The notes beneath the pieces are model-generated. The model was not told where the DNA came from. It saw only the letters and a list, made by a program, of their open reading frames with translations, and did no database searches. A program made the translations under genes and the position numbers. Shown one piece after another: positions 8,401 to 45,900 of a stretch of DNA of 64,000 nucleotides (positions within the stretch are counted from its first letter, which is position 1; every line of letters starts with the position of its first letter). Source of the DNA: Bispira polyomma (lineage: Eukaryota); the NCBI GenBank assembly GCA_965649765.1, contig OZ287757.1, positions 12,214,001 through 12,278,000 of the forward strand. The letters are read 5' to 3'.

Positions 8401-11400
8401 CCATAACATCAAGTGACATGGCCCAGATTCAATGAGACCCGATAACATCAAGTGACATGACCCAGATTCAATGAGATCCCATAACATCAAGTGACATGGC
8501 CCAGATTCAATGAGATCCCATAACATCAAGTGACATAGCCCAGATTCAATGAGATCCCATAACATCAAGTGACATGGCCCAGATTCAATGAGACCCGATA
8601 ACATCAAGTGACATGACCCAGATTCAATGAGATCCCATAACATCAAGTGACATGGCCCAGATTCAATGAGATCCCATAACCTTCACCCAGACCACATGAC
8701 ACCAGATGACCTTCACACAGACCACATGTCCGTCACACAGACCACATGACACCAGATGACCTTCACACAAACCACATGACCTTCCCACAGACCACATGAC
8801 ACCAGATGACCTTCACACAGGTCACATGACCCCACACCACTCACCCCTGGAGGTCCAGTCAATCCGCGTTCTCCGGTTGGTCCAGTCAATCCCCTGTCTC
8901 CCTTCATACCTCTGGCTCCTGGTCTGCCTGACTCTCCATCCTGACCGCTATCTCCCTTGAATCCGGGCTGTCCAGGCTGGCCTGGGAATCCTTGCTTACC
9001 CTGGGAAAGTAAAACATGGATTTGGAGAGAAGGCTTGGGTATGTTACATTGAAAAGAACACAATTTACACATTGCACGATTTATTCTCACATTCACCAAA
9101 TTGTATGAATTTGTTAACAATTTTTGGATGTTTTCAGAAAAAGAGTTTGCCCAGATATATCCCCACCTGTCTATTGTGGCCAGAGAGACAAACCACAGCA
9201 AGCAGCGGCTTAATACAACATATTATTACTAAACAATTTGCTACTAAAATATGCTTACATCACATTAAAAACAATAATAGGCAAAAAAGGGGCCATGCAT
9301 TTATTTGATTTACAGTCAGAACTCTTCCATATCAATTTCCAACTGAAGTGCAGAAAAGTCTCCAGTCTTCTAAAGGCGTTTAGAGTTTTTCTTCCATCTA
9401 CCCTGTTATGTGGAAATCTTGTTTATCTAGATACAATATACTTCTATATTGGTTAATTGATTCCTGTTGTTGCGCTTTAGAAGATCCCTCGCATCCAATA
9501 ATCTATCTAATTTAACTTTTTTAAAAGCGCTTATCTCTGTACTAGCAGATTCTATGGCGCACGAGACAGAAAATCATTTTGACAATTTTATATAGCCATT
9601 GGACGTGACCATGGAGAAGCCAGAAAAAGGTAAGGGAGGCTAAAGTCGAAAAGCCTTTCTAAATAGGTAGGTTTTGAGCTTTTTCCTAAAACAGGTAAGT
9701 GAGGAGAGGCAGTGTAAATATCATGAGGCAGATCATTCCACAGCTTTGGAGCATCATATAAGAAACTAGTGTTAAAATGTCTTTTTGACTTATGAACCGA
9801 TCGTACAAAGGTAGGGACACTGAAAAAGCATTTATAGGCCTACTACGCCTTGTATTGCGCTCCTTGTAAGGCGCATTAAAACTGTAATATCCAATAGCAA
9901 ACGCTCACCCTTGGTCCGGCTAGGCCAGGTACTCCTTTCTCACCCTTCATTCCTGGCAAGCCCGGTTCGCCCTGTAATAGGTATAGAAAAAACACATATT
10001 TATATATGAAGCCCTCTAATGCCTAGGTCCAACTGGCTGTCATGCTAGATCTCATGTAAAAATTAGGTTTGAGTGGGGTTTGCATCGGTTTTGCGTGCCT
10101 TGATGTGTTCAGGCGTGGATGTACATAATCTGGTGTAGGAGATGGTGGGCAAAAAATTTCAATTTTTGAACTGTTCAAAATTTTGTCACTCAAACGATGT
10201 AGCGTGGTTCATTTGTGTATTACGCACAGTCACTCACAGTTACGTATCATTATGCAACGGTCATGCAAATAGGCATTGAACCATGCTACATTCTTCTATT
10301 TGTGTGTGGGTTTATTTTTTTTAACGTTTTGCACGGACTTTTGCATCACATATCTTACAGGGCCATGCATGATGTGCATATCCTAACATGAATCTGGTGG
10401 GACAGGGGCTTTAGTGTCACAACAAAACATTGTACATAGCGAGGGAATGAGACACGTTTTTATAAAAAAAAGTCCTTTTTTTATTACTTATTAGGCAAAA
10501 CAAAAAGTGTGTATCATAATTGTTTTTACACAGGGACTTATAATCAGTTGAAATGTTCACTAGGAAATAATTTTAACTAAAATCTTTAAATATTAAATTA
10601 TAAATTATAAATTTTAAATTTTTAACTAAATCTCCATCATCTAAACTTCATTTGTCCGAATATTCAATTTTCTGAACTTAGTTTTTACACTCTCCCAAAG
10701 GTTATCTTTTCACAGAAATGCCTCTTCTATTTTGTGCACCCATTCTATCAGGTCCCTCAAACATGTTCGGATAATAAGAGGTTCTACTGTATTTTAGCTA
10801 AACAACTAGGGAGATAGAAATTTAGTTCAATAAAGTAGAACCTCCATTATTGATCGCTAAACCAAAGTATCAACCGGATCGGTGGATACAATAACAAATC
10901 TATTTAACAACCTAGGTTTTCTATTATAAACACTAAGCAATTCAGTCCTTTAGATATTACTATTGGAGTACCCTAAAACACTTATACATGTATTATCAAA
11001 AGTTAATATTTTATCGGAGTATTTTATGATTTTATCAACTCATTTGCACTCTCCCAAATTGATCAGCTGCAAAACTTTGACAATAATTAATGTTTTAATG
11101 AAGTCAATAATAATTAAAGGCGATACTGTCATAGTTTTGATTATAACCATAGACATTTTCGAGTCCCTGAAATTACTAGTTTCATTTTGGTTTTCCAAAC
11201 AATATTGTGCCCATTACTGAGTACCTGGTAACCCTTGTCACAGCCTTAGTTTACTGTAATGTAATTAAACTGGTTACTTACATTCTCTCCGGGTACACCA
11301 TCAAATCCGGGTATTCCTGAGATGCCGGGTTCACCCTAGATACATTAAAATAACAACAACCCTGATATTAACTGAACATGGAAATGATAAAATAAGACAT

Positions 11401-14400: not shown

Positions 14401-17208
14401 CAGTAAGGAATCTAAAATTTGCCACTGTATCTGAAATTCAACACCCTTAAAATTTAAGACGAATCAATAAAAAAAATGGGCAAAAAAACCAACAAACTAG
14501 AATTTAGGTAAGGGAGGGCAAAATAGTCACAAAAATCTAAATTTTTAGCAAATATTACCCACAATTCTACCAAAAACACATTTTCTTGGTGGCGAATTTT
14601 AAATACAGTGGTGTATTTTATATTCCTTACACTATATATATAACATGTAGGAAGCAAATGTGCAATTTTATTAAAAAGAATAATACACAAACGCTGCACA
14701 TTATTATATATATGAATAGAATTTTATATCTGATGTACAAAAAAGTAATAATATATACAGTTTCTTGCTGAGAAAACATTGCAATAACTTGAGGAAAACA
14801 AAATGTCAGGACATTCTTATCATATTTATCTATATTTTGGATATGTTAATTTAAATACCAGAGTTGACGCAGTTAACATACTAACCCTTTTCGAAAAACT
14901 AGCGTCTCTATTTAAGCAGGATTTCTATTTAACAGGGCCTGTTTTTCATACGAGTATAGATTTTTAACTTAACAGAATTCCACTTACAGGGGGTTTGACT
15001 ATACAGTGCAGTGTAACTGACTCTCAGATGCAGATCTACTGTAAGAAGGTTGATTACAACCAAAAATATAAGTTATTTTTTTAAATGTTTGCGAATTTTT
15101 TGAAACTTTTTTAACCGTTTCAAAAAACCCCTAAAATATATTGCAATGTTCTCTATTCCAATCGAAGCACAGACACACACAAGACCAACCTTATTGCCCT
15201 TATCCCCCGGCAAACCGCGTGGCCCGATCTGTGAGCCTCCCTTTCCTTCGAGGCCACCATTAGAGGGCGCCCCAGGCTTTCCCGGGGGTCCCGGGTAACC
15301 GGGCACACCCTTCTCCCCCTCCACACAGATGCCCATCTCACCCTTGCCACCCTTTGGCCCAATGGCACCTCTGGCCCCCTGATATGGACAGGAGTAAACA
15401 AAAAGAAAGCGGCCGTGCGGTGTGAGATGATATACGAAAGAAAATAAAGTGTAAATATATACAGAGGAGGCAAAAGGAGACCGGTTGTTGTCATATGTGC
15501 GATCCACTGTATAGTGATGGGAAACAACAGCCAAACTGCATCATGTGTGATAACTGTAGAATATTTTTAAAACATAAATTAAGAGTAAATAAAATATAGT
15601 ATATATATATAGGTGTGTAATGCAGATAAACAAGGGTATTTTTAGCACTTGAGCTATTGATTGTTTACTAGTTTAGAACGCTAAAAATTAAAAAGAAAAT
15701 TCTGGACGAAATTCGGTTTATTTCAGTTCCCAGCTTTAAATGTCTGGTGTACATGTGCCATAACAGTAAACAGAATATGAATCCCCGCAAAAATGTCTGA
15801 TGCACCAATACAGTAAACTAGTGTATAATATTAATACTACTATGATGTGGATACAGTGAAATTACAAGGATTTCAAGGTTTACACGCAATTTTGTACCAT
15901 GATAATTCTTCTCTTAATTGTATATTCATTCGGTCAATCGGTTCTTGCTTTTGATTTCCAATAGACAGTCTTGCGAAGTTTGATATTATGGATTGCTCGA
16001 GTACTAAAATTTTTGTTGTAATTATTTGTCAAAGACCTAGAAAAAAAGAGCAATACCAACTTTATATACATAGTAATACATATAATATATATATATATAT
16101 ATATAAATATGCAATCAAATATTATATATAATAAAATAGTATCAATTCATAATTATAATGAATCTGTAAATATTGGAAAACATTAAGCAATAGCGAAGTG
16201 GATAAAGTACATAAAAGAATATATATAATATATAAAAATGATAATTATTATTATGAATGAATCTGCAAAATAAATTACATATTAATAGACGTGTAATATA
16301 ATAATATACAAGTTGATATAATTATTGTAAACATTTAAAATACAAATGTACATGTATATACAAAAAATCACATATGGTACTGTAAAAATCAGCAATATAT
16401 ATAGTGATTCTTTACCAGTTCACGCCCGAGACTAGTTAAAGGATCGTATCAAAATTATTGGTTTACAAAATAGAGCGCAAGCACACACCATTTTGATGAG
16501 AGAAAATCATTTGTAATATTGTCATGTATAAAAACATATACTATAATGCGAGTGCCTGAAATAAATAGCCCTACAGAGAATTCTGGACTATAGTTCAATC
16601 TGGTCCAAGGGGCGTGAATTAGTACAGTACCACCTGTAGCAGTCAAATGTTCATTTAATCTATATATTCCTGTAATATTCTATATACATCTGAGCCCCGT
16701 CCAATCCTCTACCTTGTGGCCCTTCCATCCTCTGCGTAGATCAGCACTGGCACAGTTGCCCGTGGTTTCCCCCAGGTTCCCCACGGGACCTGGTGGTCCC
16801 GGTAGCCCACGGTGACCCTTTCGACCCTCCACACAGATCCCTGTTGTACCACGGTCCCCTTTACGGCCCAGACCTCCATCAGCACCCTGTTAGTAACCAT
16901 GGTAACAGGGGACATGTACTTTGTGTGTGTGTCAAATCTTCTATATTACTGTATTTATTACTGAATATATGTTGTCCTGTCCTAGAACTATTGCACAGGT
17001 TTTGGAGAGATCCATAAAGCCTTGATATTAACATATAGTTAAACCCCTTCAAGTTGAACTTTGACGGACCAGGAATAATACCTCTACTTAAGCAGGATTT
17101 CCACTTAGCAGAGTAGATTTAAAATGGAAAAGGCCTTTACTGGACTAAAAATCTGCCTCTAGTTTAAAGAGAAAATGACTTAACAGAGTTCTACTTAAAG
17201 GGGTTCGA

Positions 17209-17255
<47 letters not shown>

Positions 17256-20200
17256 GTCAAACGCCCCCTTTAGGTAGAACTTAGACAAGTAGAATTGCCT
17301 GTGAAATTTCTGATTAAAATTTATGCTGTTAAGTAAAATTTCTGTTAAGTAGAACATATTTTTATGGTCCCTTCAGATTCCACTTAACAGGGGAGGTTTT
17401 ACTGTGTATATTTATAGTAGATTCTCTGTAACTAAAAGCAGTATTAGTCCAATTTCTCCATAGTAGACTAGCACTACTTTGCTGGTCTCAAGAAGTGATC
17501 GAAAGAAATGCGAGTGCCTGAGTGTGCACATAGTCAGCCTCCTTATGGCTGGAAAAGAAATGTGAAGAAAATAAACAGCATGAGACATGTGTTAAAACAA
17601 ATATCAACCCTGACACAAACTTGCAACCTTTAAAGCAAGGATATGCATATAAATAACTAGTTCAAAAAGAGGATTTAACCAGGATTCAACATCATTGCAC
17701 GGTAGTACAAATAGGGGTTTAAGCTTTCAGAAAACAGAGCACCAAGAAAATCAAAGAGAAACATTCTCTTGTATCAACGTGTGTTGTGTTAGGCTGACAA
17801 CCAGAAATTACTAGTACTTTGAGTAGTAATACACTGAATTAGAACAGGGAATCAAAATTTGACCACTTTTTCTTTTGAAAAATATACACTGATTTGCTGA
17901 CTTTAAGCCTAATATAATTTCAAAGTAGTAAAGATGAACTTGAGAAATCGCTAAAAGTCGAATTATAAAGTAGTTAATATTTAATGGGTTTAACGTTTAA
18001 TTCGAATGCCGAATAATCTAATTCCCTTTTAGCCTTACTGTTAAGTACAAGCATACTCAGCTGTTTTTGTCTGTGAAAAAAAAAAAGAGTTATTAATCAA
18101 CCACACACATTGATTGCAATATTAGCACACTAATATTCAACTAGTATTCATCTTTTCAGTAGATTAAAAATCTACTCCGGGATTTACACATGGGAAAATC
18201 AATATTCTGGCATAATTCCAAGGCTAAATTGTGTGCATTTTAATCAGGCTCAATTTAGTATCTAATAAACATCTAATCTTGTCTGTGGCGTGCTTCTGTT
18301 AACGGGAAGCTTAACATTATATAGACTGCAAACTTGTTAACACGTTTTTGTCCCCTCGGCTGAAAAAACAAAATGCTTTGAAATAAATATGACCTGTAAC
18401 TCGAACAAAATAACAAAACAAGTTTACACCAATATGTAGACACATACTTTGTTTACATGTTAGGACAGTTATCCTGACGTTAGGACAACAAAACTGAAGA
18501 CGACTCGCTATATCTGCTCAGCATGTGTTATAATAATTCATAGAATTACAGTAAACTCTCCCACAAAAATCCCTAAAGAAACACTAAACCTCGACTTTTG
18601 TTGCAAAATTTCAAGATATTTTCTGGGAGATAAACGGTCTCAGTCGTTCCTATATGTTTGTACCATACTTTTAAACAAATCAGACTCATGGACATAAGAT
18701 TGTCATAGTACTTTTGAACCAATCAGATGGATGGACACAAGCTTGTCATGTTAAGAATAATACAAGTCACTGGAGGAACTATTTTATTTGGGAGTCAAAA
18801 ATTTAAAAACATTCCGCAGGAAAATGATCTTGGCTGTTTCGATATGCTGGTCCAACATTATACCATAGTTTTGATTTTAAACCAATCAGAATATAAAAGA
18901 CAAGCTTTGATTATAACCCAATCAGAATGTAGAACACAAGCTTTGATTTTAAACTAATCAGAATAGAGAAAAACTTGCCATATGTTGGAATATTTTTTAA
19001 CTTTTTATCAATATAACATCGCCAACAAAAAGAGGGCGAAATAATTCCCATTCTGTTTTTAGCGCGACTTTCAAGTTCTGGAAGACATGATTCATTTTTG
19101 CCAGTTTCCATGGTAACTAAATCCTAACGTAAAATGGCCAGCAGATGTAGGAGTGACGTACTGAGACGGTACACGATTTGTTATAAAAGTCAACAAACAA
19201 AAACAGCCATATACAACAAAGCCAGAATTCAATAATTACTCACTCATATCAACAATATAAACTTAGGATTTTTTTTCTGGGCCATATTTCATCAAGGGGC
19301 CTTTAAACTAAGAGAAAAAGATTACTGAATTAAAAAAAAAAACAACATCATCTATAACGGCAAATGTCATGAATTTAAAAAAAAACAGCATCATCTATAA
19401 CCGCAAATGTCATAAAAAAGATTCCATGACACTTTAAAACATGTGTAATTATTTAAATCTGGCCACCAATTGTAGCTTAGCATTTTGTACAGCTCTACTC
19501 GCTAAAATAGTTCCAAAGAAAAAGAAAGTTATGTACACATTAACACGGTGCTCAGTTTCCGTTCAGCCTTAAACTGTGTCTATTTTTTTTTGCTAATGTC
19601 AAACCAAAAACTTTTTATTAATTAAAAGTTAATAAATAAAACCACCAAAGAGAAGCAGTCTAGCTACTCCCAAGCAACAGCCAGTCAAACAAGACAGGAA
19701 TTAATAGGCAGCAAAGCCAGGTACTTTGATTTTCCTATTGCATTCCGTGCCATGATGAAGAAAAACACAAACTAGAATTGCGCCAACTTGACACATGCAT
19801 ATATCCCCCCCCCCCCGCCCCTCATAGACTAGCTAGATACTATACCCAGGGAGGCCACAGAAATGTGAAAACAAAAAACACCAACAAATTCCCTGTATAT
19901 TATTCCCCACTGTTAAGAACCACCCTCATAAGCTACCACCCCTACCCCTCCCTTAAATATAACTTATAACTGACACAAATTTTTTTATTTAAGTTCATGC
20001 CAATCTTAAAATGCCTTGTATTCTTTCCTGAATTTAATGCAGGGATTAAAGAAAAGGTTTCAGCCATTTTTCCTTCCCGATGTGGTGTTTTTTTTCACCC
20101 CTTATGTCTGTGACCACCCTGTGAGACAAACTTGTATATTGTGAGGTGGGGGAAATGTTTTAAACTGCCACCTGCCAGCAAGCATATTGCTTGCAAGTTG

Positions 20201-23200
20201 TAGTTGCCAGCCCATCTTGCTTGTAAATTAAGATAAATATTTAAACACAAGACGTTAGATTTTTCAAAAAAAATGTCTGTTTCGAAATGCCTGATTTACA
20301 ATTTCCTTTTGGTCTCCCTACTGTAGATAGTAGTCACACATATAGTTTCATCTATGGATATCAGTATAGAATATTGATCTTTTGAAGACTACTGGACAGG
20401 GAACTTTCGGCTTGTAACTTCTAAGAGTTACCAGCCCACTGGGCATGCAAGTTTTAGTGGTAGTTTCAAACACTGGGTAGGGGGGGGGGGGGGGGTGGCA
20501 TAACCAGCATACAGGCACGTGTCACAATCCTTTCACCTTTTCCCCCTTCATGCCATGTTGGCCCTGGGGCCCGAGAATGGTGGTATTGACGCCCACTGGC
20601 GCCCACTGGGTGCCATTGTAGCCGAGGCCTGGGACGCCAGGCACACCCCGCGGGCCCTTCTCACCCTTCACACAGCTACCCATGGTACCCTTCTGGCCTC
20701 GGGGTCCAATGGCGCCGGGGCCGCCCTAAGAAACAACCTCTCTGATTGTAACCACGTACAAACGGTGGTTATTTGTATGTAACCACAAACCCTTTCCTAC
20801 TAGTTAGGTAAGAAATAACCTCAGTGATCTTATATATAACCATGCAAAAAAACTGTGGTTATTTATATAACCACAAACATTTCCCTCCCACCTGGGGGAA
20901 AACCTCAACTCAATAACCATGCAGTGGTTTTATCACCTAAATGAGACCAAACCAAGATGACATGTGTTTGTAGAAGTTTAATTTGGTGTTTAAAACAATA
21001 TACAATTGACAAGTACATCTGAAAGAGTCAATAGACATATATATGTGTCATTATCTATATCATACAATAATATTTGCACTGGCTGGAAGTTTGAATCATG
21101 TGTTTCTTTTCAAATGCAATTCATGGAATGTATGTCGCTGAAAAAAAAAAAAAAAAAAAAATATATATAATTGAACAATAACCGTGACACAAGAGATACA
21201 AAATGTCTTCAATTTGTACTGCTTCCATGTTCAGGTCTTCAGTAAAAGGTGATGTCTTGTTGAACCATATTTTCTAGCTGACCTTTAATATGATCTCTCT
21301 CTCTGTCCAGACAGATCCAAGAGATATGGGTGACTCAATTAGAATACCGGCTAAATCCCGATTTTATCAATATTTATACTACTACTACTCCATCTTAGAT
21401 ATATATAGAGCTATAAAGAACTACATTACTCTGGATAGAAGATAAAAAAAAATTGTTTCTCACAAGTGTCAAGGTCAGACTATTCTATTTATAACACGAC
21501 AGCATTTTAATCATATTTATCGTGTCTATCGTGTCTTGATTTAGTAATATAGACTCTACTTCTTAAAGTGACACCAAAAATATACTTTAATACTACTTAT
21601 TTATCTAATGGTATGTCAAATTTGAAAATGGGGAAAATTTGTAGGTCATAACAATTTTATTGTAAGAAAAACTTCTAATGCAACATCATTTTTTTGCTTT
21701 TTAAATTATGATGAGAATATAACAGTATTTTGACTACTCAAATGACTACAAAGGCATAGATTATTATGACCCCATTATTACACACATACAGTATACCCAC
21801 ACATACATATTACACACATACAGTTTAATATGTAAAAGGACATGCCTTTTTGTAGAAAGTTATGGAAACGTATATTGGATCTTTAATAAGGGTCCTTTTA
21901 TAAAAGATTTATATAACAGCAAATACCCTACGAGTTCAATATTGATGTAGATCTTTTAAAATAAACTAATGGCTTTTTACAAAAAGATATGGAAACTGAT
22001 ATTGGATTTTCATTTGGGGCTCCCTTCGATAAAATATTGATGAAATAGCAAATGGTGTTCAATGTTGATGTAGAGCTTTTAAAAGCAAGTCTTTAGCATA
22101 CCTCAAATACTCTATGATATTATAGACAGTTAGTAGTTTTGGAAGAGATTTTAAAATCCCACATACAATAATAATATCACTCCTATATGTAAACATCAAG
22201 ATGTAGTGACGCCTGTTGAATTTCCTTTTTCAAACTATAGATTCTATACCTCAAATCTCAAAATGAAATATTTATATATCCTATGACTAATTTGAGTTGT
22301 TTGGTGTGAAATCTTGTACAAAAACTGCACAAGATAAAATGTTATACCACTGAGGAACTTGGATACCTATTTATACCGACTATTTTTGTGTCCTTAATGG
22401 AACTAGCAGTGATTATGATTATGTGGCAACTATTTTAAGAGCAGAGAACTAAAAACTGGACATTATTAATATGTGGGTGATCCTACCCACCAATATATTC
22501 ATCTGTAAAGATATTGTGACATATTTACACTTACATATCACTATAATTGTGAAAAATACAGCAGTATTTCTTATTTGGGTGTTATTCAGTATTATAAGTT
22601 CTCAATGGAATTAATATCAATGTCAACTTTGCAATATGAAATGCTAATAGAAAAAAATGTTTAGTTTAAATGAAATAATTTAAGGAAAAATAATACATAC
22701 ACATATATTTATGAACTTTGTAGAATGACATATTATAGACATATTTATCCTGATACAAAAAAAAAGGTTTTATTCATTTTCCTGAAAGAATTTTAAAACA
22801 TTATGATAGCAATAAATATATCACATTACAATTAGTTAGACAGCTATATATCTAGTTAAGAATAAAACAAATTATCACTTATAATAATTTAATTGTAGGA
22901 GAAAATTGAAAAAAGTTTTTATAGTGAATAATATTACATTTAATGGAAATATCTGTTTACCAAACAAAAGTTTACTTAAAAATAGTTACCAGACATTTAA
23001 TATGATTGTACCTTTGACTACTTGGTTACATGTGCGTTACCAAATACAAATTAAGAATGTGCTTGACAGCACAATTGTTTACATTGAGATGTCTTAATCA
23101 GAAAATGTTGTTTACAAAAATCTAATTTTATTTCCTTAAACTAAGTACTATTTTAATATTAGATAAAAGAAAACTTGTCGAGGCTTTGATTAAAACTTTC

Positions 23201-26200
23201 CACACTTACTGGTAAACCTGGTATGCCGGAATCCCCTTTGTACCCAATTGGTCCATCTTGTCCTGGGATGCCCTAGGGTATTAAAACACATAGCAACAAA
23301 CATTGATTATTTTCACAGAAGAAAATGATATATTGTTTTTAGATATATATAAAGTACCATAGCAACAATAATGTGTAATCTAAAAAGTAGTCACTTCTGA
23401 ACAACTTCAAATCCATTGATATCTGTTTTGAAGTAGGTTGATTTTCAATTTCAGATATATCCTAAATCAGCATGCCTTGAATAAGGTATTGTATTCCAAG
23501 TGTACTCACTTTCAGTTGAACGTTATGAAATTTACTTCTCTAATACCTTCTTATTTACCATTTATTAATTGGCAGAAATTACTGACTAGTAGATATCACA
23601 ATCTATCAATACCCTAACTTCTATTTTCAAAAGATTCACCTGTCCCAATTCAATTTTAACGGTTATAAACATGACATGTTAAAATGATATCAACTAAATT
23701 TTTCAATTGGAAAAAAACCCACCCAATTTTCCTTAAGGAACAACAGTAGAACCTCTATTATCTGAACATGTTGGGAGAGCAGGATGTTGTTTGGATAAAT
23801 CGGAGGGTTCACAAAATAGAAGAATATCGGAGGATGGAATTGAGTTCATAAAAATTAAACATTCGGATGACAGACGTTTGGATAATCGAGGTTTGTACTG
23901 TATTTAACTGAGCATAAATATAAATCAGGGGCGGTATTTACATAACGGTCTTAGTTCTAACTTAGTCTTAACCCCCCCCCTCCTCCCCCCCCCTCCCCCG
24001 CCATTATGAGAATTGTGTGTAACTTACCTGTATTCCTGGGAATCCGTCTCTTCCTGCCTCACCCTTATGACCTTTGACCCCTGCGCGACCTTCAGCCGCC
24101 TCCCCCTTCTGCCCCTTGAAGCCGTCCAGACCTGGGTTACCTGGGGGGCCTTCGGGGCCGGGAATACCTGGCAGACCGGGCTCACCCTGGGGAAAACAGG
24201 GAAAAACAAATAATTAGGGATTGCCTGGCAGACAAGGCTCACCCTGGCGGAAAACAGAGAAAAACAAATAATTAGGGATTGCCTGATAGTTTATGCCTCC
24301 AGAGGGAGCCGAGACTGAACAATTGGTTGACAAGTGGAAGAACCCAGGCTGGGGGTGTAAACTGTAAAGTCAACTAAGACCTTAATATAGGTGATATCAA
24401 ACTATTTACCTTCTGCACACAGTTACATTGCATTGGAATCAGATATTGAAAAATCTACATTCAAGAGGCAAAAATCTGTTGCATAAGAGGCGATATCAGC
24501 CTATAAACCTACACACATTTTTGAAGCCCTTCTTGCATCTTAAGTGATATATGAGGGCATTTTGGATTTATTTTAGACAGTAAAAGGCAACCACCCATTG
24601 ATCTACAGCCTGCTGGATATTCATAGTGAGCTCATACACGATAGGTATTAGTGAGGGGGATAGAAATACGAAGGGCTTGGAGCAGGTCTAGGCCTTATAC
24701 TGCTATGTGTAATGGGAAACAAATACATTATATGTCTGTATTTGAGAATTAACCGGTGGCCGTATTCACTAAGAGACTGAGCGAAGACTTAGGCTTAAAT
24801 CTAACACAAAAGTATACTAGATTTAAGCCTAAGACTTGGCTACATCTGTTAGTGAATTACGGGCCCTGGTAAACTGTATAAAGAGGAAAATACATTGTTT
24901 CTACTATTTTCTATTGTGAGGCACTGAAAAATATATAAAATAATATTTTTGGGGGGTGTCGACTGCTTGCTAACGGACATAGGGTTCTAGGAGTAACAAA
25001 TACCATCGACTACTAAGCTGACAACCTAGTGGTTGAAAGGTTGAAGAAGAACTTGCTCAACTTTAACAAAGGTCTACATTCGTCAAAAGGATGAAGAAAA
25101 ACTTGATCGGAATTAACAAAGGTCTACATTCGTCGAAAAGGTGAAGAAGAACTTGATCGGAATTAACAAAGGTCTACATTTGTCGAAAGGGTGAAGAAGA
25201 ACTTGATCGGAATTAACAGAGGTCTACACTCTAAAGAGGTTTATGGTCGACTACACAACACTACAGGGGACGACATGTCACAGCACAACAGTACTATGTA
25301 CATAAAACACGTCTTGGAACAACAGTACTTTATCCATATAATGTCGTGTAGTCGGCGGTCTATACAGTTCTTTAGTGGGTTTCATTATAACTTACTGATG
25401 TTCCGTTACAGCCATCTAGACCTCTATCTCCACGTGGGCCGGGGTTGCCTTGGTAACCCTAGAAAACAAAAAATTACCATTAGAAACCAGAATCACAGTT
25501 ACCATTAGAAACCAGAATTACAGTTACCATTAGAAACCAGAATCACAGTTACCATTAAAAACCAGAATCACTGTTACCACTAGAAACCACAATCACAGTT
25601 ACCATTAGAAACCAGAATCAGAAATACCATTAGAAACCAGAATCACAGATAACATTAGGAACCAGAATCACAGTTACCAGTAGAAACCAGAATCACAGTT
25701 ACCTGTAGAAACTTTTACTTAAGTACCAAAATATATATAGAGGGAGTTGGCTTGGTAATTTGTGTAAATAGTTTAATCTTGATTTCCTGATTAAAGTAAT
25801 GAGCAGTATAATAATTTCATAAACTAATCCTACAAGAATTATGTACTGACTCAATATCTGAAAATAAAAATAACAATAATGAGTCATTTCCTGCAGAGAC
25901 AGATGTCATTTTCGTTTAGAAGTCTATAAAACCAAATGATAATAAGTTATTACTTATACTTAAGACAACACCCACAATGTCTGGAACTAAAACATAAGAG
26001 AAAGACTATCTTCCTATTTTTAACCACAAAATCCAACCCAACCTTTACGAGATTACAGTGGGGAGACAACGCTTTGTATGATGATAGTACTACATCTATA
26101 TAGGACAGACTCGGTTGATTTCACCATTGTTAATTTGACAAAAGACAAGTAGGAATGAATATATTTTCTGGGTTTTTTTTCTTCTTTTATTTCCCCACAA

Positions 26201-42759: not shown

Positions 42760-42987
42760 TTATAGATAATTCCACATATCTCCAGCCATGCAGGGTGGAT
42801 TCCCCAAACCAACCGATTCTTCGATTTCTCCTCCCTTGTTGGACGGTTGCTCCGGTTGTTCGACCACTGGCTCCTCAGGTACTGGCACTGGGACGTCGGT
42901 TCTGCCGCCATCCGGTTGTGATGGGATCGGTTCATAGTCATAATTGTATTCCTCCACCGCTCCAACGGGCGCAGTCTCCACGGAACC
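42760..42987 (-). CDS. Array last exon: GSVETAPVGAVEEYNYDYEPIPSQPDGG...NKGGEIEES(VGLGNPPCMAGDMWNYL*)
   Basis: tttttcccacatgcag acceptor; TAA at 42760-42762; possible internal donor TCG|GTTGGT at 42814/42813. Confidence 0.8.
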   Translation of the reverse strand, partial: GSVETAPVGAVEEYNYDYEPIPSQPDGGRTDVPVPVPEEPVVEQPEQPSNKGGEIEESVGLGNPPCMAGDMWNYL

Positions 42988-45900
42988 CTGCATGTGGGAA
43001 AAATGGTGTACACTGAACAGATGTGTAGTAACCAAACAGAGATAACATATCGTATTGAGAGAAGTTATTGATGTTGAATATGTAGGTTACAAGAAATCGA
43101 TCAGAATACATTTACATTTAAAGCCCCTAAACGATTGGGATGGCTTGAATTTTTTTTTAATTTAGCGTATTTGTAATGATGGCAGGCAGTGTGTGAAATT
43201 CACTGTGGCCCAGCGCCACCGCTTAATTGAAAAAGCCACTTCTTTTCAAATTCCGGTGGCCCGTTTGGCCACCATATTTCCGGGGCTTTGACTTTTTTTA
43301 CTACACACGCTACAGTAAACTTGTGATACCAGATTGTTCCATTTGCTTCGGCACGCATGCGCAGATGAAATTTATTGTTGAATAAAAGGAAGATTTTATA
43401 TATTCTTAAGTAGTCATATATGTGATCTTTATATATTCTAATTAAACGCATATTTTACTAACTTCATCTATTATTGCCCAGTGCTCTCACTGCTAACCAG
43501 TGTTTCACAGTTAAATCAACCCCTCTTGCCCACTCATTCGAAACAAATAAGAGCGGCTGGTAAATTTTCAGCCCATTTTTTTGAAGTAACACAATATATC
43601 TTTTATTATGTATTAAAAAAATTTGTTTTAAGTTGTATTCTGAAATAAAATTTATAGCTTAATTTTTTTAAGTATTGGGCAACCTGATTGTAATCCAAGC
43701 CACCACACTTTTTCCGCGAAGTTCACATACTAATGACAGGGTACTCATACACCCCCCTCCCCACACACCCTCTCCAAGGATCTGTACACACCCTCACCTT
43801 CACCACTCTGTATCTAGAATACTCATACATACCCCTCCTTCCCCATGGATCTTTATCCCCCTTCACCTTCTCCACTCTGTATCCAGAGAGTACTCATACA
43901 TCCCCCTCCCCTTCCCCATAGATCTGTATCCCCCCTCACCTTCACCACTCCATATCCAGTGTACGTATACACTCCAGGTCCCTCCGCTGTCGCCTCTCCA
44001 GACGTCACCTCTCCAGATTCCACCTCTCCATCAAACTCTCCCCCTGAGAAGACTGGCTCCCTGTTTATGTCTGTCACTGTGGTGGATCCAGACTCCCCAG
44101 ATCCGTACACTTCAGTAGAGCCAGAGGCATCAAATCCACGGTCTCCAGAAATGGAGAATCCTGAGCCTGATCCTGAGACATCAAATCCACTGCCGCCACT
44201 CTGGGAAAGTTAAACGATGATATAGCTATGAATATAGACGATAGTCTTATTTTGACAAACAAGTTCTTATTTGTTGTTAAAATGGACTTCTACAATGAAG
44301 AAAACCTTTCAAAATACAACAAAATTAAATGTGCTGAAATATATCAATTTGAATACAATATACTCACTGGGTAGACAAAGTATGTGTAATCCCCTGATCC
44401 AGACTCCCATCCACTGCCGGAATCCTGGAGAGAGAAACAAACAACACATTACTTGACATGTTTATTAGATTCAATAAGAGCTTCTCCATAAAATGTTTAT
44501 TGTTTGACAGTAATTGTACTTGGGAGTATCATAACTCACATATTAACTTGCCTGCCAGTATTGATCAATGTGATGAAATGTGTTCCAATCAAATCAAATA
44601 TTTAGAAAAGTTTGGGAAAGTATTAAAGATCTCAGAATACTTACCACCCCTTCATAGGGTCCACCAATAACAACCTCTTCTCCTTCATCCCCTCCTTCAG
44701 GAGTTACCTGGAATGTTAACAGACACAGCATATATAGTATTCCATTGTATTTTGTCTTTTTAGCGTGCCGTCTTGATGCAAGGCATCGACTGAATTGCAG
44801 AATTTCCCGAGAGAGACATTATTTTGAATTATAAAAGTAAGTAAGGAAAATATTTGCTGTTATATATTTAAAGTGAACTGTCTACCTGTCTACCCTCTAC
44901 TAAATATACACCTAATTAACATATTCATTACCTAATTAACATAAATTATATTATTGTTTATTCATATTTGATATCACTACATCCAAGATGGCGTCCCTCC
45001 AGGGAAATTCTGCAATCCTGCCGAGGCATCTTCCAAAGTGCAACAACATAATTAATTGACCAATCGAGAAGTCCAACGAAACATAGCCAAAGTCATAAGG
45101 ACGGATGTGAAGTGTACAGGGAAGCAACAACAGAGTCAGTTAACCAATAGAGACGTTCAAAAACATAGCCAAGATCGTAAGGAAGAATCTAAATGTGGCT
45201 GTGTGTGGGAAGGGGACCAAGTGGAGTAAGCAAGTTTGAAGAGATGGGTTTCAAGTATGTTTCTGTACCTAGATAGTGTTTCAGGTGATGCTAACTCAAA
45301 AGGGAGACCATTTCATAACATAGGGGCAGCAGTAGAGAAAGCTCTCCATCCAGCCTTCTTGGTGGGTCTCACAGCCTTCTTGGTGGGTCTTACAGCCTTC
45401 TTGGTGGGTCTTAAAGCCTGCTTGGTTGGTCTTACAGAAAGTAAAGTCTTAGCTTCAAATTCATTGGTCTCTCACCAATGTGGGTTCGAATTTGGTTTGA
45501 TCCTTCATATGGGAAAGTTTGTCAGGTACTTTTCAGAGTTCGATGGTATACACAGTGGCTTTAGCACTGGTTTCTTCCACCAATGAATCTGGCCGTCGTG
45601 ATATGACCTAAGGCGGTTATGAAAAGCAACGTAAAACCCAACTAAATTCCAATTAAAATTTTTAGAAGCATTACATATTTAATTCTTGGTCCAAAACAAT
45701 AAGTTTATTAAAATTTATATTTAAACTTTTTTTCAAAACCTTGAAAAGTAACAATCATTCTAAACTATAAATCTGTCTGTTTGATTTACAACTGTGGTAA
45801 CAAAAGAAATCAAACATTTGCAAAAAAGAAATGAATATTTGGATTAGAGAAGTTCATATGATGGAGTTTTGTAATCTACTCACCACTTCTGGGTAGGTCA

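Follow-up and report, generated by a model that had tools for sequence, protein, structure and literature searches.

An alpha2(IV) collagen gene with a cluster of three paralogous exons

The window analysed here, a stretch of 64,000 nucleotides, carries part of an invertebrate alpha2(IV) collagen gene, which is encoded on the minus strand of a 1.04-Gb animal genome. The Gly-X-Y exons of this gene extend from about position 28.8 kb down past the low end of the window, and its NC1 exons are found 16-19 kb beyond that end, in the stretch of the next 20 kb. The best named relatives of the NC1 domain are alpha-2(IV) or NC1-domain chains, mostly from invertebrates, and the NC1 pieces share 67-84% identity with invertebrate chains and 65-74% with vertebrate chains. 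The product combines an interrupted Gly-X-Y domain with a terminal NC1 domain (PF01413) nearest to alpha2(IV), as befits an alpha2-like type IV collagen. Elsewhere in the window, the minus strand has open frames at 42760-44420 in which Ser-Gly and acidic residues abound and which resemble glycosaminoglycan attachment regions; they represent either another gene or far 5' exons of the collagen gene. The exons that concern us, in the order of transcription, are as follows.

23210..23272, minus strand: upstream flanking exon, 21 codons (Gly-X-Y frame, AG/GT ends)
20537..20725, minus strand: alternative exon A, 63 codons, weak donor (sequence, donor score)
16713..16886, minus strand: alternative exon B, 58 codons, with a weak donor and no pyrimidine tract at its acceptor (sequence, donor score)
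15190..15378, minus strand: alternative exon C, 63 codons, weak donor (sequence, donor score)
11282..11335, minus strand: downstream flanking exon, 18 codons (Gly-X-Y frame; spacing comparison)

Exons A, B and C, of 174-189 nt, are all in phase 0 and are separated by introns of 3.6 kb (A-B) and 1.3 kb (B-C). Exon A is 50% and exon B 48% identical to exon C, and a genome search with exon C matched A, B and C only. All three preserve the Gly frame and differ in the central interruption; each encodes a different version of one triple-helix break. The interruption of exon A contains two N-X-T sequons, that of exon B an extra Cys and that of exon C neither, which would give the isoforms unequal potential for glycosylation and cross-linking. 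A single-exon protein, P0195, shares the Cys-bearing interruption of exon B (16713-16886), a likeness which hints that a B-type exon is present in another animal; in a tree of 29 exon units, P0195 and exon B were not grouped. The cluster introns also hold high-copy repeats at 17060-17400, 20200-20480 and 15800-16000, with depths of up to thousands of times the background.

The spacing of protein landmarks indicates how many of these exons a single mRNA carries. From the GCNGT motif to the repeated unit there are 94 residues, the same as in the intronless relative L094, and between the unit and the following Cys motif there are 144 residues with one exon or 265 with all three, versus 145 in L094; the homologues L089 and L090 have a single copy of the unit. 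Since the one-exon spacing matches L094, one exon per mRNA is very likely, and we regard the paralogous exons A, B and C as very likely mutually exclusive. Their duplication is old, because four-fold synonymous sites are identical at only 5/22, 7/21 and 5/19 positions in the pairwise comparisons, which is the chance level. A sequence-only reading of this DNA had proposed such a cluster under the control of a competing RNA switch; paralogy and spacing support the cluster well, while the case for the switch proved weak.

The same exon duplicated in other animals

The exon occurs in two tandem copies at three of the 10 homologous loci that a metagenome scan provided for comparison (L087:164-671, L088:7776-8693 and L093:2565-3498). 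The first copies at these three loci have weak GUU(U/G)GU donors resembling that of exon C. L088 and L093 have a UGCAUG-containing block in common before the second copy; GCAUG lies 21-31 nt upstream of four of the six duplicated homologous exons and belongs to the best-preserved intronic block between L088 and L093. For the three homologous first exons, no downstream partner of the donor outdid shuffles; for the L088 first exon an upstream poly-G run, as a partner, beats all 60 shuffles. Independent duplication of the exon was considered and is not demonstrated, as one of 26 inner branches was supported in the 29-unit tree. A search of the literature outside subscription journals returned no fitting title on col4a2 exon clusters or on docking systems of molluscs or annelids. 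As this alpha2(IV) exon is present in tandem copies both here and at the three loci, reminiscent of nematode let-2, swapping the flexible break may be a repeated way to tune basement membranes.

Weak splice sites and putative sites for splicing proteins

The donors of A, B and C score 3.3, 1.7 and 1.9, against a median of 4.3 for 27 donors of the gene; in the 27-donor comparisons of scores and partners the donor positions were chosen by a semi-automatic procedure, so that a small number could be misplaced. Three motifs adjoin the cluster exons.

20841..20923, minus strand: two UGCAUG motifs, 121 and 198 nt before exon A
16889..16895, minus strand: UACUAAC directly before the acceptor AG of exon B, STAR/QKI-type or branch-point-like
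15174..15181, minus strand: UGUGUG run just past the donor of exon C, SUP-12-type

Exon A is the only one among 27 exons with UGCAUG within 200 nt upstream, and it has two copies, against a background of 0.048 per 200 nt; we take this motif to be the RBFOX consensus. Motifs shared downstream of A, B and C were sought as well and discarded, the exon pairs ranking 37th, 46th and 104th of 351 donor pairs. In C. elegans, CUAAC is an ASD-2 site and UGUGUG a SUP-12 site (PMC3875643). By their sequence, the matches at the cluster are putative protein sites.

These features fit a mechanism in which each mRNA likely carries one of the three exons and splicing proteins likely make most of the choice. 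Exon A would be repressed through the RBFOX-type sites upstream of it, B would be gated by a STAR-type site on its poor acceptor, and the UG run would aid the donor of exon C. Protein-led choice at weak splice sites, joined by no more than one helix that would hide the donor of A, is the reading that we consider probable. It is supported by the nematode orthologue let-2, which is switched by the protein ASD-2 (PMC4165533), by the ordinary standing of A's pairing partner among the donors of the gene, and by the homologous first exons without a downstream partner. Set against it are a twin 15-mer on the helix core, the match of its derived letters, a gain of G/C in the surrounding repeat and a proximal helix that survives local folding.

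A twin 15-mer and a predicted long-range helix at the donor of exon A

The sequence-only reading had proposed that two identical 15-mers compete for the donor of exon A, pairing of the proximal copy leading to B and pairing of the distal copy, by looping out B, to C. We judge this model unlikely. Much of what it was built on is nevertheless sound: both copies are present, at 16545-16559 and 17507-17521, and the pre-mRNA strings at 17520-17500 and 20535-20512 read as quoted. The window has no further match at up to two mismatches, and 0/100 shuffles gave two matches. The 15-mer is not a high-copy word either, with three exact copies in 1.04 Gb versus one for the reversed control. The pairing announced as 7+5+8 bp is returned by RNAduplex as 7+5+7 at -25.2 kcal/mol, the eighth pair being a terminal G-U, and the distal copy does form the 7+5 core with the same site, at -16.8 kcal/mol, so that one site has two complementary elements. 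The statement that the copies lie in otherwise unrelated DNA was not confirmed, as the distal copy is inside a dispersed repeat and the proximal element adjoins a second repeat fragment.

In 164 kb around the gene there are 15 isolated complex exact repeats of at least 15 nt at distances of 60-5500 nt, the twin included, and 3/15 are, by inspection, non-coding, non-tandem and more than 500 nt apart. The twin covers exactly the 12-bp core of the best helix of A, a point in favour of the competing model and the single striking coincidence of the case. From the repeat counts and the expected helix sites we estimate, roughly, a joint chance of about 1 in 1000 per cluster, to be read against a scan that covers very many windows. 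Over both copies, contigs of three sequencing runs from one study showed no letter differences.

The two arms of the proximal helix are the following.

20508..20537, minus strand: donor region of exon A, the proposed docking site, with no other genome match over this part
17497..17524, minus strand: proximal element, the best predicted partner of A's donor, containing the 15-mer 17507-17521

The helix of 20537-20508 with 17524-17497 comprises 24 bp and reaches over -1/+1 of the donor. In a scan of the 24-kb pre-mRNA, the proximal 30-mer and the donor region of A are mutual best partners, at -28.7 and -30.0, with the next-best partners at -25.9 and -27.3, which also speaks for the competing model. 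Among intron-sized control strands from this genome, 15/166 pair as well as the proximal element when loops are unrestricted and 8/164 when loops are compact, as do 8/200 local shuffles. The expected number of equally good sites is 0.049 for the A-B intron and rises to 0.15 over 11.3 kb. Within 11.3 kb the partner of A's donor has a p of 0.16, and seven of 26 other donors of the gene stand at 0.163 or below; for two of those seven, no control site is as good. A presumably constitutive donor (5310 and 9228) has an upstream partner at -28.6, and no control in 300 kb is as good.

Folding calculations speak for the proximal helix, which is predicted with a probability of 0.82-0.99 in three of four constructs and of 0.11 in the fourth. 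Of 19 controls at -25 or better in 588 kb, only 4 reach a helix probability of at least 0.9 in both contexts; the proximal element reaches it too. With local folding included, about 0.025 such sites are expected in the A-B intron, and the chance of an equally good proximal helix for this intron is about 0.02-0.05. Masking of A's donor by the proximal pairing, as had been suggested, is accordingly thermodynamically plausible, and still 8/164 controls pair as well. At 20480-20545, the donor is also predicted to pair with a poly-C run 40 nt downstream, a rival to the long-range helix. We also rejected a broader network in which the B donor would pair with 12327-12300 (-29.0) and the C donor with 18296-18273 (-27.2), 0.19 and 0.40 such partners being expected by chance in 11.3 kb; the partner of the B donor overlaps a low-copy repeat, which counts against it too.

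Within the protein-led reading, then, the proximal helix may add to the skipping of exon A, something we hold to be somewhat short of even. As judgements rather than computed values, we consider it fairly possible, a little below an even chance, that no helix works at all, and rather doubtful that the proximal helix alone does.

The distal copy and the repeat around it

The distal 15-mer has to be considered together with the repeats around the two copies.

16545..16559, minus strand: distal 15-mer inside a MITE-like repeat; 7/15 letters differ from the family majority
16393..16636, no strand assigned: decayed MITE-like dispersed repeat with inverted ends, about 240 nt (E 4e-34 to a profile of other copies)
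17406..17496, no strand assigned: second dispersed repeat family, left part, ending beside the proximal element

The MITE-like family has at least 40 copies (41 matches to one family member), and its majority was taken from 25 copies, four of 29, which aligned by their ends only, having been dropped as misoriented. Seven of the 15 distal letters are derived relative to this majority, and all seven equal the proximal copy. The repeat copy shows 17 G/C gains versus 5 losses, the largest gain of 26 rows, and a 5-nt insertion lies directly beside the distal 15-mer. This match and the G/C-biased remodelling favour the competing model, in which a transposon would only recently have supplied the distal selector. 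However, the remainder of the copy differs from the majority at 34/118 places (29%), and measured against this divergence the excess of derived letters alone is non-significant (P 0.11). When the same derived letters were placed at random, -16.8 was reached in 0.65% of 2000 trials, a figure that is post hoc and bound up with the identity of the two copies. The derived letters were not traced to a subfamily of the repeat; this source was rejected, since 0/7 other genome matches to an overlapping 15-mer are family copies, and no further member of the family was seen to have them. Just 5' of the distal 15-mer, at 16565-16591, derived letters strengthen a hairpin to -7.5, versus -3.3 for the family majority, a gain equalled in 4% of 2000 simulations.

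As a competitor, the distal copy performs poorly. Its duplex with A's donor, at -16.8 versus -26 to -29, is about 10 kcal/mol weaker than the proximal one, and at least three other partners in the intron of the distal copy pair better; opening costs about 6 kcal/mol on each side, local rivals exist, and A's donor is outside the top ten partners of the distal 30-mer in the 24-kb scan. In cut-out constructs, the distal helix with A's donor is predicted at 0.001 or less in 4/4, whether the proximal element is present or the distal one stands alone, so the distal copy failed, in prediction, to compete for the docking site. Being made later and much weaker, it is not expected to outcompete the proximal site; in tested systems, exon use tracks relative pairing strength (PMC4691838). 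Moreover, nothing in the competing model prevents double inclusion of B and C. The age of the repeat tells against it as well. Chance-level synonymous sites among A, B and C, taken with the 29% divergence of the repeat, suggest that exclusivity likely predates the distal copy, and since the repeat seems to be of more recent date than the exons, the distal copy is unlikely to have been the original cause of exclusivity. Competing selection by two pairings, the centre of the sequence-only reading, is consequently not sustained: the distal partner is weaker, not among the top three, predicted unpaired and situated in a younger-looking repeat.

The twin might instead serve as a protein-binding word flanking B, or as a partner of the UG-rich stretch after the donor of C. 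The copies do flank exon B on both sides, the 15-mer pairs with the donor region of C at -15.5, and letters that pair poorly with A's donor are also identical between the copies. Distal pairing with the donor region of C is nevertheless predicted at 0.023 or less, the downstream likeness of A and C is the 37th-ranked value given above, and we know of no protein consensus that fits the 15-mer; we find such a role quite improbable.

The twin arose either as a short copied patch, by convergence under selection, or by chance. Templated insertions of 2-35 bp from templates kilobases away are described (PMC7454005). It is likely that the distal twin is incidental, the result of a short templated repair or of chance, and does not work as a second selector. 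That a transposon fragment in an old exon cluster was rewritten into an exact selector copy, with a 5' splice site as the docking site, is a proposition that we hold to be slightly less credible still than the competing model itself. If true, an invertebrate collagen IV gene would be showing a selector soon after its origin. Should the RNA switch exist, its selector would have come from a transposon by short-patch copying or convergence, unlike in the arm-duplication model (PMC6071210).

Comparison with known systems

Among the systems with tandem paralogous exons, Dscam1, 14-3-3zeta, Mhc and srp resemble the present cluster in having two intronic elements complementary to one site (PMC6071210; PMC4691838). 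In those systems the known docking sites are located before or after the exon cluster and are conserved across species (PMC6071210; PMC4691838), whereas here the donor of the first exon would itself be the docking site, and one of the two selectors comes from a repeat and is much the weaker. Given the predicted failure of the distal copy to compete, we do not class the cluster as a docking/selector system.

A closer parallel for the proximal helix is provided by CG33298 of Drosophila and by R1/R3/R4 of human ATE1, where a long-range helix likewise lies over a splice site and is expected to change which exon is used (PMC2724269; PMC7797038). These precedents count for the competing model too. 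The CG33298 and ATE1 helices are conserved and proven by compensatory mutants (PMC2724269; PMC7797038), whereas the helix here is a prediction; the former spans 185 nt and the latter mask acceptors, while here a donor would be covered over 3.0 kb (PMC2724269; PMC7797038). At best, the predicted proximal helix works like the splice-site masking of CG33298 and ATE1.

The nearest relative of the whole cluster is let-2 of C. elegans, where use of exon 9 excludes that of exon 10, the two being distinguished by an interruption (PMC2119826), and where a 30-nt intron blocks double inclusion and ASD-2 acts as the switch (PMC4165533). Both genes encode the same chain type, and in both the main difference between the mutually exclusive paralogous exons is an interruption of Gly-X-Y. 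The let-2 gene has two exons of 108/111 nt and a 30-nt intron, whereas the present one has three exons of 174-189 nt and kilobase introns. The cluster is best placed beside let-2, as a further set of collagen IV exons that are very likely used one at a time.
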